Source: Acidimicrobiia bacterium (GTDB lineage Bacteria > Actinomycetota > Acidimicrobiia > Acidimicrobiales > Bin134). From it: DNA of 64,000 nucleotides. Made by a program: the position numbers and the translations under genes. Below, one piece after another: positions 58,569-64,000 of the stretch. The notes below the pieces were generated by a model. That model saw nothing but the letters and a program-made list of their open reading frames with translations, searched no databases and was not told the DNA's origin. How positions within the stretch are numbered: the first letter of the stretch is position 1; each line of letters begins with the position of its first letter. The stretch lies in the NCBI GenBank assembly GCA_022827725.1, contig JAJEIJ010000005.1, positions 462 to 64,461 on the forward strand, in the 5' to 3' direction.

Positions 58569-58631
58569 GCTCGGCGTGACGCCCTGAGCACCGCCGCGGT
58601 CGGCTACGACGACCGCTACCGGTTCCGCCTG

Positions 58632-59948
58632 ATGGCGGCCATCGTCCCCGTACAGTTCGGGGTGAGCATGAGCCTGACGGTGATCGCGGTGGCCGTTGGC
58701 GACATCGCCCGAGACCTGAACACAGGAACCGGGGCCGCCAGCTGGACGGTGACCGGGGCCATCTTGGCCTCGGCGGTGTCCACGTCTTTGGGCGGCAAGT
58801 TTGGCGACATCTACGGCCACCGCCGGGCGTTTCTCGCCGCCGCGGTGATGCTGGTGGTGGTGACCCCGCTCAGCGGGCTGGCCTGGAACATCGAGAGCCT
58901 CATCGGGTTCCGGGTGGCGGCCGGGGTGGCCAACGGGGTGGCCACCGCCGCGGGCACCGCCATGGTGCTTTTGGCGTTCCCCATCTCCACCCGCTCGAGG
59001 GCCATCGGCTGGTACCAGTCGGCGTTGTCGGGGGCGCCGGCCATCGGGCTGATCGTGGGCGGGCAGATCGTGGAGCAGTTCGGCTGGCGGTGGGTGTTCG
59101 CCTTCTTCGGGGTGATCGCCGTGGTCGGCCTGGTAACCAGCGCCACGGTGGTGCGGCCCATGGGCGGCGGCCTGGAGGTGTCCATCGACTACTGGGGCGG
59201 CCTCACGCTGTCGGCCGGGGTGGCGCTGGTGCTGGTGGGGCTCACGATGTTGGGCAACGACGGGGTGGGCACCTCGGTGAGCATCGTCCTCATGGCCGGC
59301 GGGGTGGTGCTTCTGGCCGCGTTCGCCCGCATCGAACAGAGCGTGCCCGAGCCCATCATCAGCATGGACTACCTGCGAAAGCGCAACTTCAGCATCCCCA
59401 TCTGGGTGGTGACCCTGGCCAACTTCTCGTTCATGGGCGGCCTGGTGATCACCCCGTTCCTGTTCACCGAGCGGCTGGGCTGGGGCCTCGGGGCGGCCAC
59501 GCTGCTGTTGGCGGTGCGGCCGATCACGTTCAGCTCGTGCGCCTTCGCCGGCGGCTACATCCACCCCCGCCTTGGGGCCCGGATGACCCCGGTGGTGGGA
59601 TCGTCGCTTTTGGCGGTGGGCATGGTGTTCTTCGCCCTGTCGGCCTGGCAGGCGTCGCTGGGCTGGACGGTGGCGGGGCTGTTCGTAGTGGCCATCGGCC
59701 ACGGCATCCAGCTCCCGTCGCTCACCACCACCGCCTCCGACGCCGTGGAGCCCGAGGACTACGGCGTGGCCTCCGGCATGCGGGGCACCCTCACCCAAGT
59801 GGGCGTAACCACCGGCATGCAGACCATGGTCATCGTGATCGGCACCGACATCACCGGCACCTCCCTAGCCAACTCCTACCTCCTAGGCGCCGGAGCCGCA
59901 GTATTGGCAGTAGCCCTATCCCTAGCCATCTCCCCCCGACCCCACTAG
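58632..59948 (+). CDS. MFS transporter (DHA2-like)
   Basis: GKFGDIYGHRR, GWRWVF, many TM helices. The frame is open upstream to CTG at 58584. Confidence 0.85.
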   Translation: MAAIVPVQFGVSMSLTVIAVAVGDIARDLNTGTGAASWTVTGAILASAVSTSLGGKFGDIYGHRRAFLAAAVMLVVVTPLSGLAWNIESLIGFRVAAGVANGVATAAGTAMVLLAFPISTRSRAIGWYQSALSGAPAIGLIVGGQIVEQFGWRWVFAFFGVIAVVGLVTSATVVRPMGGGLEVSIDYWGGLTLSAGVALVLVGLTMLGNDGVGTSVSIVLMAGGVVLLAAFARIEQSVPEPIISMDYLRKRNFSIPIWVVTLANFSFMGGLVITPFLFTERLGWGLGAATLLLAVRPITFSSCAFAGGYIHPRLGARMTPVVGSSLLAVGMVFFALSAWQASLGWTVAGLFVVAIGHGIQLPSLTTTASDAVEPEDYGVASGMRGTLTQVGVTTGMQTMVIVIGTDITGTSLANSYLLGAGAAVLAVALSLAISPRPH

Positions 59949-60390
59949 TAGCAGACTGGTCGGAACAGGTCGGGAAGATTCGTGCGGTAACTGTAGAAAA
60001 TTGACTGAAATGCGCTTCCAACCCGCAGTTTGTGGGACTTTCAACCCGCAGAATGTGGAGCGGGTTCAACTCAAGGCGATGTCGACAGGGCAGGTGGAGA
60101 GGATAAGGCCCTGGGGGGTGGCGGCTTGAGCTCCAGCTCACCACCCCCCCGGCCAGCAATGCCCAAGGTCGCTTCACCGAAATCGGGAGAGGCTAGCAAG
60201 GGCGTACGCCGTGCAGATTAGTACGAGTCACTGGCGATGCGGCGCGCAATACTGGTCTGTACGTTGATCGGCGAAGTTGCCCTGGAGGTTTGCGTTGTCT
60301 CTTATGTCGGTGTTGCGGTCGCCAATAGCAGCGCTGTCGAGCCGCCGCAGGCGTCGGGCAGCCCAGTCGGCTGTAGAGCCAAATTCACCG

Positions 60391-60477
60391 GATCCTGATG
60401 GCGACCTCGCCGCTGGCCGGTTCAGCCGGCACATGAATTCCGAGGACTTCCTCGACTCCCTCAAAGACCGCGCCTGA
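60391..60477 (+). pseudogene. Possible C-terminal fragment of an AbrB-type antitoxin
   Basis: DGDLAAGRFSRHMNSEDFLDSL resembles the AD-L-AAGR...EEFL-SL tail of such antitoxins. No credible N-terminal part. Confidence 0.35.
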
Positions 60478-60564
60478 ACCCCACACTGGAAGTGGCACCA
60501 CCAGCCCAGGTTTGCCTGTCTCCAACGTCCCGCCAGCCGGTAATTTTGCAATGGGAGGTGTGAG

Positions 60565-60786
60565 GTGGACAGACGCTTTACCGCGACAGTCAGTAGCGAG
60601 GGCGATGGCTACGTCGCGTTCTGCCCGAAGGTCGATGTCGCAAGCCAGGGAGAGACGGTCGCCGAGGCACGAGACAACCTTGTCGAAGCCCTTACGCTGT
60701 TCTTTGAGAGCGCAAATGAGGATGAGGTCGAGCGGCGGCTGCGCCAGGAGATCTATGTGACCCAAATTGAGATCGGGGTTGGTTAG
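60565..60786 (+). CDS. hicB: Short HicB-family antitoxin (no hicA)
   Basis: EGDGYVAFCPKVDVASQGETVAEARDNLVEALTLFFE. RBS GGAGG. Confidence 0.85.
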   Translation: MDRRFTATVSSEGDGYVAFCPKVDVASQGETVAEARDNLVEALTLFFESANEDEVERRLRQEIYVTQIEIGVG

Positions 60787-60811
60787 CTGACGCGGTATAT
60801 TGACGGCACCC

Positions 60812-60842
60812 ACCCGGCTCCATGAGGGCCGGGTCTTTCTTT
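60812..60842 (+). terminator. Intrinsic terminator after hicB
   Basis: ACCCGGCTC-CATGA-GGGCCGGGT stem followed by CTTTCTTT. Confidence 0.6.
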
Positions 60843-60865
60843 GAGCGTGAAACCGGGAGTGAGGA

Positions 60866-61156
60866 ATGTTGCGACGAGTTGTCCATCCTGGAGAGGTGCT
60901 GAAGGGCGAATTAGAGGAGTTTGGGATCACGCCTACCGACCTCGCCCGCCAGATCGCCGTGCCGCCCAATCGCGTGTCTCAGATCGTTGCCGGAAAGCGG
61001 TCGATCACCGGGGATACGGCGCTTCGACTCGGGCACTGGTTCGACGTTGAGCCCCAGTTCTGGATGAACCTGCAGACCCAGCACGACTTGGCGGTTGCCA
61101 GCTATGAGGTCGGCAAGGCCGTGGAAGCCCTGCCCACAGCCCCCCAAATCGCCTAA
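60866..61156 (+). CDS. higA: HigA-family antitoxin (no adjacent higB)
   Basis: VHPGEVL, LARQIAVPPNRVSQIVAGKRSITGDTALRL, FWMNLQ. Confidence 0.9.
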   Translation: MLRRVVHPGEVLKGELEEFGITPTDLARQIAVPPNRVSQIVAGKRSITGDTALRLGHWFDVEPQFWMNLQTQHDLAVASYEVGKAVEALPTAPQIA

Positions 61157-61243
61157 CTGACTTAGTCATCGACCTCCACCAGCACCGCGGTCAGGCGATA
61201 TTTCATTGTGGTTGCCCATGTGCTCGGCTACCGTGACCTCGTA

Positions 61244-61518
61244 CTTCCCCGCCTGCCCTGTTCCGCAGGGCATGGCGGGGCTATCTTTTGCACCGCATCT
61301 CTAAAGGCCCTCTTGAATTCGTTGGCATCGGTGCTGGCATCGGGTATGGTGTCACTGTTCTTCCCCGCCTGCCCTGTTCCGCAGGGCATGGCGGGGTTAT
61401 TTTTTGCCAACCCGTCCGAGTCACTTTCGTTCGTTGTCAACGAGCAAGAGATTGGGTAGGGTGGCCTCAATCTTCCCCGCTTGGCCTGCGATGCAGGGCA
61501 GGCGGGGGTTTATCTTTT
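61244..61518 (+). repeat. Three ~46-bp hairpin repeats separated by unique ~66-70-bp spacers
   Basis: Units start at 61244, 61360 and 61472: CTTCCCCGCCTGCCCTGTTCCGCAGGGCATGGCGGGG + YTATYTTTT. The first two share 37 identical bp; the third is diverged but keeps the stem. Confidence 0.9.
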
Positions 61519-61884
61519 CGGAGCCTTGTCTGACATAGGGCCCCTCCAAGGAGTGACGGCCATGGTCGGATTTGGAAACCTCTCCGTGTGGCTCTTGCAG
61601 ATAGCCTGATGACATGAGCGCCGAATCCCCGGCTAATGACCACAGCGAGGACGAATACCCCACGCCCAAAGTGCTGCCGGCAATCACAGCTAACCGAGGC
61701 CTCATTCCCGACTCATGGGGCTTCTTGAGCAGATTGCGCAAGAGGAAAGCAGAAGCTCGGCGACCTTCCTCGCCCAAGTAGTGAGTTCGTAGCCGCATAC
61801 TGCGGCTCAGGGCATCACGCCGCGGCTTCTTCTACTTGGTGGATCAGAGTTCTGACTGAATCCCAGCTAGGAGGGAGGTCGAAC

Positions 61885-62625
61885 TCAGCAGTTCACGTAC
61901 TTGAAGGGCAAGGACTCCCCTTGTTTGAAGAGGTGCCGCACGCTGGTGCCGCGGTAGTGCCCGAGCTCATCGGCAACCTCGCCGCTGAAGCCCCACCGTT
62001 TGCGGGATTTGCCGATGTCTTGTTCCCAGTCCCGGTCGCCTCGCTGTCGCTGTCGCCAGCTGTCAATCCGATACACCTCGCGGATGACTCCTCGGTTGAC
62101 GGCAAAGGCGTAGTCGGCACCATTGCGGCGGGGCCCAAGCGTCCACCAACCTTGAGTTGTCTCGTACAGTTCCTCGGCGGACATCTCTGGTGACCAGAGC
62201 CGGGGAATCCGAAACAGAATCACCCGCTCCTTGATTTCGGACACTTGGGGAGCATCAAGAATCGATATTGCGACATCAGTGGTCATTCGGCCCCGCAGCC
62301 AAACGTGATGGCCCTGGACCTTGTTGGTGAGTTCGTCCATGCCCAGCAGCTGAATTGCCGCTGCTTCGACCTCGAATGCGGTTCGGTCTGTGAGTCCAAA
62401 CCGCAGCAGCTGATGTTCGACTTCGTGGCCTGCTGCGTGAATCTCCCTGATCCGGTCCAGCTTGTCGCTCGCAGCTTCCTCGTCGCCAAGAGCATCCAGG
62501 GCGTGGGCGAACACCCGGCTTCCGTTTCCCTTGCCCACATAGAAGACCTCATCGTCGCGCGGATCGATCAACAGATAGACGTACGCCTTGAGCTGCTCGC
62601 TTACGTATGACGTGAATGCGTTCAC
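61885..62625 (-). CDS. GIY-YIG nuclease-domain protein (LEM-3-like)
   Basis: YVYLLIDPRDDEVFYVGKGNGSRVFAH, AFEVEAAAI, LTNKVQG. Confidence 0.85.
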   Translation of the reverse strand: MNAFTSYVSEQLKAYVYLLIDPRDDEVFYVGKGNGSRVFAHALDALGDEEAASDKLDRIREIHAAGHEVEHQLLRFGLTDRTAFEVEAAAIQLLGMDELTNKVQGHHVWLRGRMTTDVAISILDAPQVSEIKERVILFRIPRLWSPEMSAEELYETTQGWWTLGPRRNGADYAFAVNRGVIREVYRIDSWRQRQRGDRDWEQDIGKSRKRWGFSGEVADELGHYRGTSVRHLFKQGESLPFKYVNC

Positions 62626-62679
62626 CTACTGTGCCCCCGTTCCAAACATCCGAGATTCTTGTCTCTCACGGCACCAGGT

Positions 62680-63324
62680 CTAATGGTGACCGAGGTCGTA
62701 GGCACCATTGGCGAGCCCGGCTTCTGCGATGGTGCGAAACGTGATCGAGACGCGTCGCTGACGCTTGGTCTTTAGGCCGTTCATTGTGTCGGATTGCCGC
62801 TTGGCGATGCCATGGCGCCATTTGGAGCGGGCATCGCCGTGAAGGAGAACAAGGCTGCGCGGTTCCAGGCGCTGCACGTAATCGTCTCCGGTCGATTCGC
62901 AGCAGAAGTCCATGTTGACCGCCGAGCCCAGGCTCACGGTGGCGACGGCGGGGCCGAAGCAGTCCCTGTCGATGTGGGGGGCGATTCCCTGTCCCGGCAG
63001 GTACTCGTTGACGATCGCCTGCTCGAACGGTCGCTGAGGGTCGAGCAACCGCTTCGCTTCCTCAGATGCAGCTTCACGCACCATGTGCGACAGCTGTGCC
63101 AGCCACTTGGGCAATGGCCCAATGCGAGCCGTTTCATCAAGGCCGCGACTGGTGTAGTCGTACTTGTAGCCGAAGTGCATAACACGCCGCGACAGGTCTG
63201 TGAGCCACTCAGAGCTGTCGATATGAGCGAGCAGCCCGTCCTCCTCGGAGGCAGCCAAGAAGTCCGGGTGGTACCCGAGCCCCATCGGCACAGTGGCTGG
63301 TTCGGTCAGGACATCAAACAACAT
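62680..63324 (-). CDS. AlkB-family Fe(II)/2OG dioxygenase
   Basis: RRVMHFGYKYDY, NEYLPGQGIAPHID, WRHGI, RVSITFR. Confidence 0.88.
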   Translation of the reverse strand: MLFDVLTEPATVPMGLGYHPDFLAASEEDGLLAHIDSSEWLTDLSRRVMHFGYKYDYTSRGLDETARIGPLPKWLAQLSHMVREAASEEAKRLLDPQRPFEQAIVNEYLPGQGIAPHIDRDCFGPAVATVSLGSAVNMDFCCESTGDDYVQRLEPRSLVLLHGDARSKWRHGIAKRQSDTMNGLKTKRQRRVSITFRTIAEAGLANGAYDLGHH

Positions 63325-63404
63325 GGCCGTGACCCTACCGACACCCAATGACAGCTTGACCGGCTGTGCTTTCCGCCACGCGTGGCTGGTGACGTGGATC
63401 GAGC

Positions 63405-64000
63405 CTAAGCAGTGACACCCTCCGCCAGGGCGAGCAGTAGGTCGATCACTCGTTGGGCATCGCCTGCTGCAACAAGTTCCAGCGGCCTCTCGTAGCCAAG
63501 ATCAGGATTGGGTGAGCGCAACCAGAGACTTGCTGCGTTATCGCTCATGACCAACCGGGCCAGGTCGTCGACAGTCGGAGGCTCATGGAGCCAATCGGTG
63601 TCGTTCCAGCTCTCCATAGGGTCTTCAGTAACCGTGTGCCGTTCCCCCCACCCTTCTGTTGTTTGGACAGCGCCTGCTGCTGTCGAGGGTGGCATCGGGT
63701 CGAAGCTGAATGAATCTGCGAACCTGACCGAGTCACCGACCACATTGAAAATTGAGAGTCCGAGATTCATATTTATGGATGTGACGCTAATGCCGAAATC
63801 ATTTGTAAATTCGTCGATGATTTCTGCCTTGCTGGCAACACCGCCTCCACGTTCAATCCTCTGGGTGATCTCGGTAATGATGCCCTCGTACTCTTCCATT
63901 CCCCAGTCCCGTGGTGCTAGCCGGAATGCCTTGTCTACACGCATCAGGTTTGAGCCCCGCCAATTCTTGAGTGAACCGATAGAGCCATGGCCGATGGCTT
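63405..64000 (-). pseudogene. Chimeric ORF: unknown protein segment joined to an Xre/MbcA/ParS (DUF2384) antitoxin C-terminal domain
   Basis: C-terminus ASLWLRSPNPDLGYERPLELVAAGDAQRVIDLL. The upstream part (WGMEEYEGIITEI...) is unrelated, more AT-rich, and appears to extend to the window edge. Confidence 0.5.

Follow-up and report, generated by a model that had tools for sequence, protein, structure and literature searches.

A tandem hairpin array in an Acidimicrobiia genome as a candidate orphaned leader of NYN-domain genes

What is an array of palindromes at regular spacing, if it is not a clustered regularly interspaced short palindromic repeat (CRISPR) array? The question is raised by a stretch of 64,000 nt from an Acidimicrobiia bacterium (GenBank assembly GCA_022827725.1, contig JAJEIJ010000005.1, positions 462 to 64,461 of the forward strand; this whole stretch is called the window below), in which three hairpins with T-rich tails follow one another between positions 61244 and 61518. 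A first-pass annotation described them as a non-CRISPR repeat-spacer array with unique spacers and offered functions ranging from an RNA antitoxin to a guide array. Comparison with related loci suggests a different anatomy, in which each repeat is one copy of a short 5′ control module, a promoter-like site followed by a terminator-type hairpin, that in other genomes stands directly ahead of a gene for a NYN-domain protein. On balance, the array probably consists of three tandem, diverged copies of this module whose NYN gene has been deleted here, and in intact loci the leader would throttle NYN expression. The window copy is a decayed example, and the interest lies in the family that it reveals.

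Three tandem units in the window

A repeat search of the window returned three co-oriented direct repeats, which form a 68-nt repeat family at 61224–61291, 61340–61407 (85 % identical to the first copy) and 61452–61519 (66 %), spaced by 116 and 112 nt. Units 1 and 2 share an identical 34-nt hairpin (61247–61280 and 61363–61396), with two exact occurrences in the window against 0.00 expected from 100 shuffles. A degenerate 17-nt form of the 5′ arm occurs three times against 0.14 expected, a number reached in none of 100 shuffles. Folding of the + strand gave a single hairpin per unit, with energies of −30.7, −30.9 and −29.9 kcal/mol (z=−5.2, −5.5 and −5.1; none of 200 shuffles was equally stable), and each hairpin is followed by a T-rich tail (61281–61290, 61397–61406 and 61509–61519). 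Repeat search, shuffles and folding agree with the location, the 116/112 period and the hairpin-plus-U-tail form on the + strand that the first-pass annotation had given.

The hairpins comprise 14–15 bp, are G+C-rich and start 11–12 nt past a −10-like hexamer in all three units. The stem of units 1 and 2 is made of 7 + 7 bp, split by a bulged T in the 3′ arm; in unit 3 the bulge is lost and the stem contains one G·G mismatch and one G·U pair. Unit 1 (61195–61296, + strand) opens with the −35-like TTGTGG at 61206–61211, followed by a 17-nt spacer, the −10-like TACCGT at 61229–61234 and, after 12 nt, the hairpin with its bulged T at 61247–61280 and the T-run CTATCTTTTG at 61281–61290. Unit 2 (61311–61412, + strand) has TTGGCA at 61322–61327, again a 17-nt spacer, TATGGT at 61345–61350, the hairpin of unit 1 at 61363–61396 and the T-run TTATTTTTTG at 61397–61406. 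Unit 3 (61423–61524, + strand), which is of an 'NYN-proximal' type discussed below, has TTGTCA at 61434–61439, a 17-nt spacer, TAGGGT at 61457–61462, a hairpin at 61474–61508 and the T-run TTTATCTTTTC at 61509–61519.

All three units thus carry a candidate sigma-70/sigma-A promoter of the form TTGnnn and TAnnnT, with the hexamers 17 nt apart, within the 16–18 nt expected of such promoters, and positionally conserved. The G+C-rich stem-loops of about −30 kcal/mol, with their T-rich tails, have the form of intrinsic terminators, and termination is predicted at each. By its shape, each unit would be a complete small transcription unit with a promoter, an RNA of about 45–50 nt that is barely longer than the hairpin, and a U-tract, and the option of a series of short terminated small RNAs, one of those put forward in the first-pass annotation, fits this anatomy.

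The picture of repeats separated by unique spacers did not hold. Homology is not limited to hairpin and tail, since the complete 112–116-nt periods align to one another at 62–66 % identity. The supposed spacers, described as unrelated to each other, are identical in 25 of 49 columns, have the −35-like TTCGTTG in common and hold the −35/−10-like sites of the next unit. They are also conserved between genomes: the sequence from 61185 to 61530 is 96 % identical over 346 nt to positions 2316–1971 of a related locus that has three units and an intact NYN gene (L046; blastn), and the array region is 79–90 % identical to four others (L050, L022, L002 and L049; blastn).

A covariance model seeded with Acidimicrobiia copies only (R1) was run over the whole window with filters off and found just the three units, at 97.3, 92.1 and 80.6 bits, each over model positions 1–102. 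The window units were in the seed, so their own scores match by construction, and independent support comes from six plasmid matches described below. The next-best match on the + strand (60762–60849, 12.1 bits, E=0.34) was considered as a fourth unit and was not counted as a family member. It is a separate, different hairpin with its own T-run (stem 60812–60834), lies behind an ORF at 60565–60786 with a weak DUF7387 match, and is probably the terminator of that ORF. Some 1.1 kb upstream of the array lies a 19-nt sequence (60085–60103) whose complementarity to the 5′ arm of the hairpin units and its flank reaches 84 %; it could be the remnant of half a unit, inverted with respect to the array.

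In a scan of the window against Rfam 15 only two tRNAs reached the gathering score. The sole sub-threshold match on the array, on the minus strand, was to skipping-rope, whose gathering score of 36.7 lies above the 17 bits obtained (E=4.1), and eight related loci gave no matches at E≤1. The Rfam models for abiF, ToxI and the CRISPR direct repeat (CRISPR-DR), which the first-pass annotation had proposed for such a scan, gave no match.

Linkage to NYN-domain genes in Acidimicrobiia and on plasmids

Genome contigs were scanned with a degenerate pattern covering the 5′ arm, the loop and the start of the 3′ arm, which gave 58 loci, labelled L001 onward. Thirteen of them (L001, L007, L008, L017, L026, L028, L036, L037, L040, L042, L048, L051 and L056) were treated as chance matches and dropped, because they are without the 3′ arm and the T-run and come from unrelated taxa. 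The remaining 45 loci represent 44 distinct ones (L025 overlaps L024), and the window array was counted apart from these. All 44 are from sponge-associated metagenome-assembled genomes (MAGs) of Acidimicrobiia, among them Candidatus Poriferisocius, Aldehydirespiratoraceae, the 'Sva0996' marine group and similar taxa. This exact-pattern scan, which diverged copies can escape, found one to four loci per genome; it and the ten plasmid loci described below define the distribution of the family given here. A search of the loci with R1 added eight copies overlooked by the exact pattern, for a total of 62 full-length copies. Units are co-oriented within clusters, and arrays at 112–116-nt spacing occur in eight of the 44 loci besides the window (L002, L003, L004, L022, L046, L049, L050 and L054). 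Among the chance matches, three from unrelated MAGs (L048, L051 and L056) have a longer sequence in common around the pattern (~2001–2028; 1738–1765 in L056), without 3′ arm or T-run, which is probably a conserved coding segment.

When 54 distinct copies were aligned, the columns that are invariant or conserved to at least 90 % outside the positions fixed by the pattern were the TTG of the −35-like site, a G-n-TA-nnn-T-G around the −10-like site, and the T-run. These peaks persist in 20 copies whose upstream parts are less than 60 % identical among themselves. Loops differ in sequence and measure 4 nt in eight of the 54 copies and 5 nt in the others. Two coding readings, an in-frame peptide running from an NTG codon to the hairpin and an ORF on the minus strand upstream of unit 1 whose product would start MGNHNG, were rejected: the change in loop length between 4 and 5 nt breaks the reading frame, and the genes next to the conserved upstream block differ from locus to locus.

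For the neighbouring genes, ORFs were picked by codon-position G+C and the flanks of ±2 kb were then scanned with Pfam. The recurrent gene, directly behind the last unit, encodes a NYN-domain protein (PF01936) of about 209 aa. Searches by tblastn with trimmed queries showed that the last unit is directly followed by an intact NYN ORF in 17 of the 44 loci and by a partial or frameshifted one in eight (L014, L019, L020, L023, L027, L047, L054 and L055). An N-terminal stub alone was present in two more (L011 and L022) at a looser threshold. An NYN gene in one of these forms therefore follows the units in 27 of 44 loci. It is absent in 17, a count that includes L004, whose remnant is the C-terminal end of the NYN gene of L003, about 2 kb upstream of the L004 units. 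The NYN start codon (ATG or GTG) lies five codons ahead of the conserved VVVFIDYQN and 5–8 nt past the T-run in most loci (20–25 nt in L006, L010, L034 and L035). Arrays of two or three units precede an intact NYN gene in L002, L003, L046, L049 and L050, and in four of these (L002, L046, L049 and L050) the unit immediately before the gene is of the type of unit 3.

Other neighbours vary and none is constant; among them are genes of toxin–antitoxin and defence systems (HigBA, Phd/ParE, AbiEi/AbiEii, Zeta-like kinases, HEPN, DUF4143 ATPases, HNH, GIY-YIG and AlkB-like proteins), transposases and metabolic genes. Tabulating neighbours across genomes, a check that the first-pass annotation had proposed, thus identified NYN as the recurrent partner in the 44 loci.

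Relatives of the NYN protein numbered 218 at E≤0.001 among 1216 candidates and are named at most 'NYN domain-containing' or 'LabA/DUF88'. Eight residues (D11, N14, E118, D122, D147, D149, E165 and D201) are invariant in 22 aligned sequences. The acidic ones fit the metal site of PIN-like/NYN nucleases, and from these residues the protein looks catalytically active. Its AlphaFold model is confident (predicted local distance difference test, 95), and the best match of the model in the PDB is 2qip, a LabA-like NYN protein (E=6e-7, TM 0.49/0.61), followed by the MARF1 NYN domain and T5 flap endonuclease. A search of the sequence against PDB chains gave nothing meaningful (best E=0.063, a designed repeat protein), and tblastn against the phage collection gave no match. 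Bacterial NYN/LabA-like proteins are described as being of unknown function, with functional studies lacking, in a classification of 2017 (PMC5499597).

A test on distant relatives was made with plasmids. Searching them with the NYN protein by tblastn gave 13 records at 28–35 % identity, mostly from Actinomycetes, and ten plasmid loci, selected by protein similarity alone, were fetched. A hairpin element lies just upstream of the NYN gene in six of these loci, from Dietzia, Pseudonocardia, Miniimonas, Rhodococcus pyridinivorans, Rothia and Clavibacter. It combines an outer stem of 7 bp and an inner stem of 4–7 bp with a T bulged at the position seen in Acidimicrobiia and with a T-run, behind which come a Shine-Dalgarno site and the start codon. 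The top R1 match in these six loci falls at this position, with 38.5, 33.4, 25.7, 25.6, 25.2 and 16.6 bits (E=1e-8 to 0.014 in a search of 45.8 kb with filters off).

The plasmid copies also bear on the structure. The outer stem occurs in the compensatory variants CCCCGCC/GGCGGGG, CCCCACC/GGTGGGG, CCTCGCC/GGCGAGG and CCTCACC/GGTGAGG. Across the six copies 98.6 % of cells pair and six of 14 pairs are changed on both sides, which none of 500 shuffles reached; as a control, sliding the partners by 1–3 columns gave 28–54 % pairing. A MAFFT hairpin alignment that mis-registered the 5′ arms of Rothia and L038b was excluded from the pair counts, and an alignment contaminated by reverse-strand palindrome matches was set aside. 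The non-Watson–Crick cells on the + strand comprise 18 G·U against 2 A·C. Together with the one-sided bulge and the one-sided T-run, this indicates an RNA read from the + strand and not a symmetric DNA site. Going by the plasmid gene tables, which are not complete, four of the six loci have a divergent upstream gene, which argues that the hairpin is not the terminator of that gene. The near-invariant stem sequence and the bulged U are kept across classes of Actinomycetota, more strictly than terminator function alone would require.

In five of the six plasmid copies (L059, L060, L063, L065 and L066; not Miniimonas L062) the 5′ arm begins with CTCC, which we take to be complementary to the GGAG core of a Shine-Dalgarno site, as in an anti-Shine-Dalgarno sequence. 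A G-rich Shine-Dalgarno-like site lies ahead of the NYN gene in Dietzia, Miniimonas, Rhodococcus and Clavibacter. Conceivably, a read-through mRNA could fold so that an alternative pairing covers its ribosome site.

In both sets of loci, then, a conserved promoter-like site, a bulged hairpin and a predicted U-tract stand immediately 5′ of one clade of NYN genes, in two classes of Actinomycetota. Going by the arrangement of units, the module has been amplified in tandem in some sponge symbionts and has become an orphan in the window.

The orphan array in its genomic island

No NYN gene was found by tblastn anywhere in the 64-kb window. The homology to L046 stops about 5 nt past the NYN start codon, and the window array is regarded as an orphan because homology to intact NYN loci ends at 61530. 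A stub of the deleted gene occupies 61520–61530 (+ strand), with GGAGCC followed by TTG at 61526–61528 where relatives have the ATG start codon. Of an NYN ORF within about 25 nt of the last T-run, the start-codon position alone survives. In place of the ORF stands a block of about 330 nt (61531–61861, no strand assigned) that is unrelated to NYN and is shared with other islands (L022 1139–1384, L024 2534–2345 and L011 1073–887; blastn). It contains a 55-aa ORF (61614–61781, + strand) with no Pfam, PADLOC or NCBIfam match. The block recurs in L011, L022, L024 and L038, the last of which has a 91-aa ORF at the corresponding place. The window is accordingly best described as carrying a putative triplicated NYN leader whose gene was deleted or replaced.

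Upstream of the array lies an orphan HigA antitoxin gene (60866–61156, + strand; TIGR02607, 88.3 bits; HTH_3), which ends 90 nt before hairpin 1; downstream, a GIY-YIG nuclease gene (61885–62625, − strand) is convergent on the array. The hairpins might therefore be ordinary terminators, duplicated by slippage and without any promoter or NYN link, that simply stop transcripts coming from HigA on one side and, as bidirectional terminators, from GIY-YIG on the other. Their intrinsic-terminator shape, their location between convergent genes and the HigA-to-unit junction, which recurs in L009 and L024, are all in keeping with this. We consider it very unlikely, because the −35/−10 positions ahead of the hairpin stay conserved where the flanks are unrelated, because the element keeps its place 5′ of NYN in Acidimicrobiia and on plasmids, including loci whose upstream gene is divergent, and because stem sequence and bulge are conserved across classes. 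The window HigA gene is without HigB; its homologues in L011 and L023 come directly after a gene for a HigB-like toxin. An orphan antitoxin gene thus lies beside an orphan RNA array.

The GIY-YIG gene belongs to a block at 61862–62993 that is 93.6 % identical to L003 2897–4028 (blastn), where the GIY-YIG/AlkB-like block follows an intact NYN gene. A gene for an AlkB-like 2OG-Fe(II) oxygenase (62680–63348, − strand) is paired with it; the pair recurs in L003/L004, L021 and L046 and may be a two-gene unit. The first-pass annotation had listed a guide array for the adjacent GIY-YIG nuclease among its options. Such a CRISPR-like or guide function is extremely improbable, although the adjacency itself is seen in the window and in a few relatives (L003, L004, L021 and L046). 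Those four are the handful of the 44 loci with a GIY-YIG gene within 2 kb, most units being far from any such gene, and the constant partner is NYN. The GIY-YIG protein is itself a full-length match to the single-gene phage-defence system PD-T4-3 (PADLOC, E=3e-39; Pfam LEM-3_GIY-YIG). The spacers are conserved between genomes instead of variable and have promoter-like sites inside them. The region 61160–61620 had no match in the plasmid or phage collections at E≤0.01 and so no protospacer-like targets there. No cas domains were present in the ORFs scanned between 57639 and 63998, nor did any Rfam CRISPR-DR model match at the array, and the statement that the array is not CRISPR stands.

Array and neighbours lie in an island at ~58600–64000 with a G+C content of ~0.58–0.61 against ~0.66. 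It is a mosaic of blocks that are 85–97 % identical to different loci, with junctions at or near the units. One alternative is a DNA-level element, in which the palindrome serves either as an operator, bound by a dimeric regulator of the NYN promoter region, or as a hairpin for recombination or mobility (repetitive extragenic palindrome, REP; HUH; or attC-like) that shuffles island modules; hairpins of the HUH/REP type capturing inserts were also among the options first listed. Besides the position of the junctions, the co-orientation of units within clusters would suit this, and a palindrome with symmetric changes is equally expected of a dimer-binding operator. We nevertheless regard it as unlikely: the element is strand-asymmetric in its G·U excess, in the T bulged on one arm and in the T-run on one side, and its loop varies in length and sequence. 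It occurs at one to four loci per genome and stands 5′ of NYN. The ±2-kb flanks contain no HUH transposase, integrase or constant regulator gene, and no attC-type GTTRRRY cores flank the hairpins of the three copies. DNA-level elements, plain terminators and guide arrays all fit the data worse than the attenuator or antitoxin versions considered below.

Several further features of the island and its surroundings were recorded. Lying downstream of a conserved major facilitator superfamily (MFS) transporter gene, the region 58600–64000 has the look of a recombination hot spot or defence island, and the MFS junction is common to L009, L011, L023, L050 and L057. Just downstream of this gene a 23-bp tandem direct repeat (60015–60058; consensus CTTCCAACCCGCAGAATGTGGGA, 1.9 copies, 85 % matches) lies within a block of ~230 nt (60014–60247) that is 87–93 % conserved in L003, L039, L041, L045 and L057 and could be an operator or iteron-like site. 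Elsewhere, the segment 54001–55000 has a G+C content of 0.46 in a window otherwise at 0.60–0.70.

Proposed mechanism and comparison with known systems

In the reading that we favour, a leader that attenuates NYN expression, the sigma-A-type promoter of each module would fire, as predicted from its consensus matches. Most transcripts would end at the U-tract of the intrinsic-terminator-like hairpin, giving a short RNA of about 45–50 nt, and NYN mRNA would arise by rare read-through past the last hairpin. Read-through is the expected source of the message because the start codon lies 5–25 nt past the U-tract, which leaves no room for another promoter in most loci. Such a requirement implies that the leader gives much hairpin RNA and little nuclease message, that is, attenuation. 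The near-invariant stem and bulged U suggest recognition by a protein, most simply NYN itself. The orphan units of the window may still fire short RNAs, with no downstream gene to control. We infer from sequence patterns and their conservation that the promoter is active, that transcripts terminate, that read-through controls expression and that NYN recognises the hairpin.

A number of observations weigh against this reading. Promoter, 5′ end, termination and read-through are all in silico predictions, and a generic promoter scan of the window listed the unit 2 promoter alone (TTGGCA-17-TATGGT, 61322–61350), one found against 0.7 expected. Seventeen of the 44 loci, and the window, carry units without NYN, and the units may have a role independent of it. 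R1 found no motif in four of the ten plasmid NYN loci (M. alvei, M. aubagnense, R. gordoniae and Methylobacterium). In most Acidimicrobiia copies there is not enough space for a Shine-Dalgarno site, which makes translation of a read-through mRNA harder to explain.

The structural evidence has its own limits. Covariation comes from the six plasmid copies only, which were aligned by a model already carrying the structure. In the 62 Acidimicrobiia copies there is no stem covariation (one pair changed on both sides, which 264 of 500 shuffles match), and one stem position is unpaired in 33 of the 62; this set was gathered by exact pattern, so that its stem uniformity partly reflects the search. The first-pass annotation had suggested from the third copy that the structure is under selection; the idea gains support from the distant plasmid copies and not from the evidence cited for it, given the lack of covariation in the Acidimicrobiia set. 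The U-tract, finally, is interrupted in Acidimicrobiia, with TA 2–3 nt past the stem in 51 of 54 copies, and could there be the −10 box of a nearly leaderless NYN mRNA (TA(T/C)TTT 8–9 nt before the start codon). That possibility is kept as a caveat only and was otherwise set aside because the plasmid copies are without such a hexamer and have a normal Shine-Dalgarno site after the U-run.

A bolder alternative is an RNA antitoxin of the type III or AbiF/RCd22 kind. The hairpin RNA would bind and neutralise an NYN RNase in cis and in trans, tandem units with their own promoters would raise the ratio of RNA to toxin, and orphan arrays would protect against NYN toxins encoded elsewhere or on plasmids. 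We put this forward tentatively, as possible but doubtful. Type III loci have the same gene order, in which an RNA is followed by a Rho-independent terminator and a nuclease gene (PMC5086642). The AbiF/RCd22 system offers a parallel in its leader RNA, with two conserved motifs, which is described as neutralising the toxin by direct binding (bioRxiv 10.1101/2025.04.15.648962). The arrays of two or three units ahead of intact NYN genes in L002, L003, L046, L049 and L050 point the same way, as does conservation of the stem sequence and bulged U far past the needs of a terminator. The turnover of NYN is like that of toxin or defence genes (17 intact, eight partial, two stubs and 17 lost in 44 loci), and the setting is one of toxin–antitoxin and defence islands and plasmids. 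The orphan units of the window score as high as NYN-linked units (97, 92 and 81 bits), and the earlier suggestion of an RNA-antitoxin array that has lost its toxin fits in so far as an NYN RNase partner is missing here and present in relatives.

An antitoxin function would explain the tandem amplification, the high turnover of NYN and the retention of orphan arrays. Toxicity of NYN is an assumption, and the fold differs from those of ToxN, CptN and TenpN. The units are not processed repeats under a single promoter, and the high covariance-model scores of the orphan units may just reflect recent deletion. PADLOC gave the NYN protein a weak partial match to HEC-09 (E=1e-8 to 2e-10), the sole tested NYN defence candidate, for which no phage defence was observed (bioRxiv 10.1101/2024.01.29.577857). 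If the antitoxin version applied, the hairpin RNA and NYN would form a new RNA–protein toxin–antitoxin or abortive-infection module of Actinomycetota, with the dose of antitoxin set by tandem promoter–hairpin units instead of by the cutting of a repeat precursor, and with orphan arrays as free-standing antitoxin genes, a proposal to which we give limited credence.

Under either version the family has some general interest. An RNA hairpin tied to one clade of the large bacterial NYN/LabA-like family provides a testable handle, as the likely substrate, operator or inhibitor of the protein, and it is found both in sponge-symbiont Acidimicrobiia and on plasmids of Dietzia, Rhodococcus, Pseudonocardia, Miniimonas, Rothia and Clavibacter. 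Should the RNA neutralise the nuclease, RNA-antitoxin systems would gain a new fold among their toxins and a new kind of array architecture, and orphan hairpin arrays in defence islands would be explained. Should it act as an attenuator only, it would still be an undescribed leader family, absent from Rfam 15 and from the open-access literature searched, in which no description of an RNA element upstream of NYN genes was found. The leader appears to be an undescribed RNA control element. The locus also serves as a warning that regular palindromes with 'unique spacers' can be tandem promoter–leader modules and not CRISPR-like arrays.

Among known systems, CRISPR arrays share with the NYN leader their palindromic repeats at regular spacing and differ from it in the features already given, to which the 112–116-nt period and the homology of the spacers to one another can be added. 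REP elements, bacterial interspersed mosaic elements (BIMEs) and HUH-associated hairpins are unlike it in copy number, with one to four loci per genome in the exact-pattern scan, in the NYN gene behind 27 of 44 loci, and in the lack of an HUH domain in the flanks. Intrinsic terminators and attenuators have the same G+C-rich stem and U-run between promoter and ORF. Unlike attenuators, the NYN leader is without an upstream sequence long enough for an antiterminator, and unlike plain terminators it conserves its primary sequence and bulged U across classes of Actinomycetota.

The leaders of rnc, rne and pnp carry a conserved hairpin in the 5′ untranslated region that is recognised by the ribonuclease it controls. 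They are bound or cleaved to destabilise the mRNA, are not terminators, occur in single copy and belong to housekeeping genes. The NYN hairpin, in contrast, has a U-tract, lies near the 5′ end, is tandemly amplified and belongs to a mobile and often decayed gene.

Closer in layout is the AbiF leader, likewise a conserved structured RNA in the 5′ leader of a toxic defence gene, with more than one copy of its motif. In Clostridioides difficile the leader RNA RCd22 (abiF motif) lowers expression of the downstream gene and neutralises its protein in cis and in trans (bioRxiv 10.1101/2025.04.15.648962). The two differ in RNA structure (no Rfam abiF match), in protein family (Abi_2/HEPN-like against NYN) and in phylum, and the NYN leader is known from sequence alone.

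The antitoxin RNAs of type III systems consist of repeats of ~34–45 nt that are cut by the toxin itself. The loci toxIN, cptIN and tenpIN join a non-coding RNA, a Rho-independent terminator and an RNase gene, make far more RNA than nuclease message, repeat the RNA and reside on plasmids or in defence islands (PMC5086642). The NYN loci are similar in all of these respects in so far as they can be predicted. In relatives of the window array the hairpin and T-run end 5–25 nt before the NYN start, the place of the type III terminator; in the window the hairpins remain and the gene is gone. According to the same source, the type III repeats are short units under one promoter that are processed into monomers (PMC5086642), whereas the NYN-leader units are 112–116 nt long and each has its own promoter-like site and terminator. 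The nuclease, too, is of a NYN/PIN-like fold (PF01936) and not of the ToxN/AbiQ, CptN or TenpN families. In NYN-leader units the terminator hairpin is itself the conserved RNA, and both NYN toxicity and RNA binding are hypothetical. Judged by its sequence features, the NYN leader resembles type III and AbiF loci in layout and would work like an attenuator-type leader.

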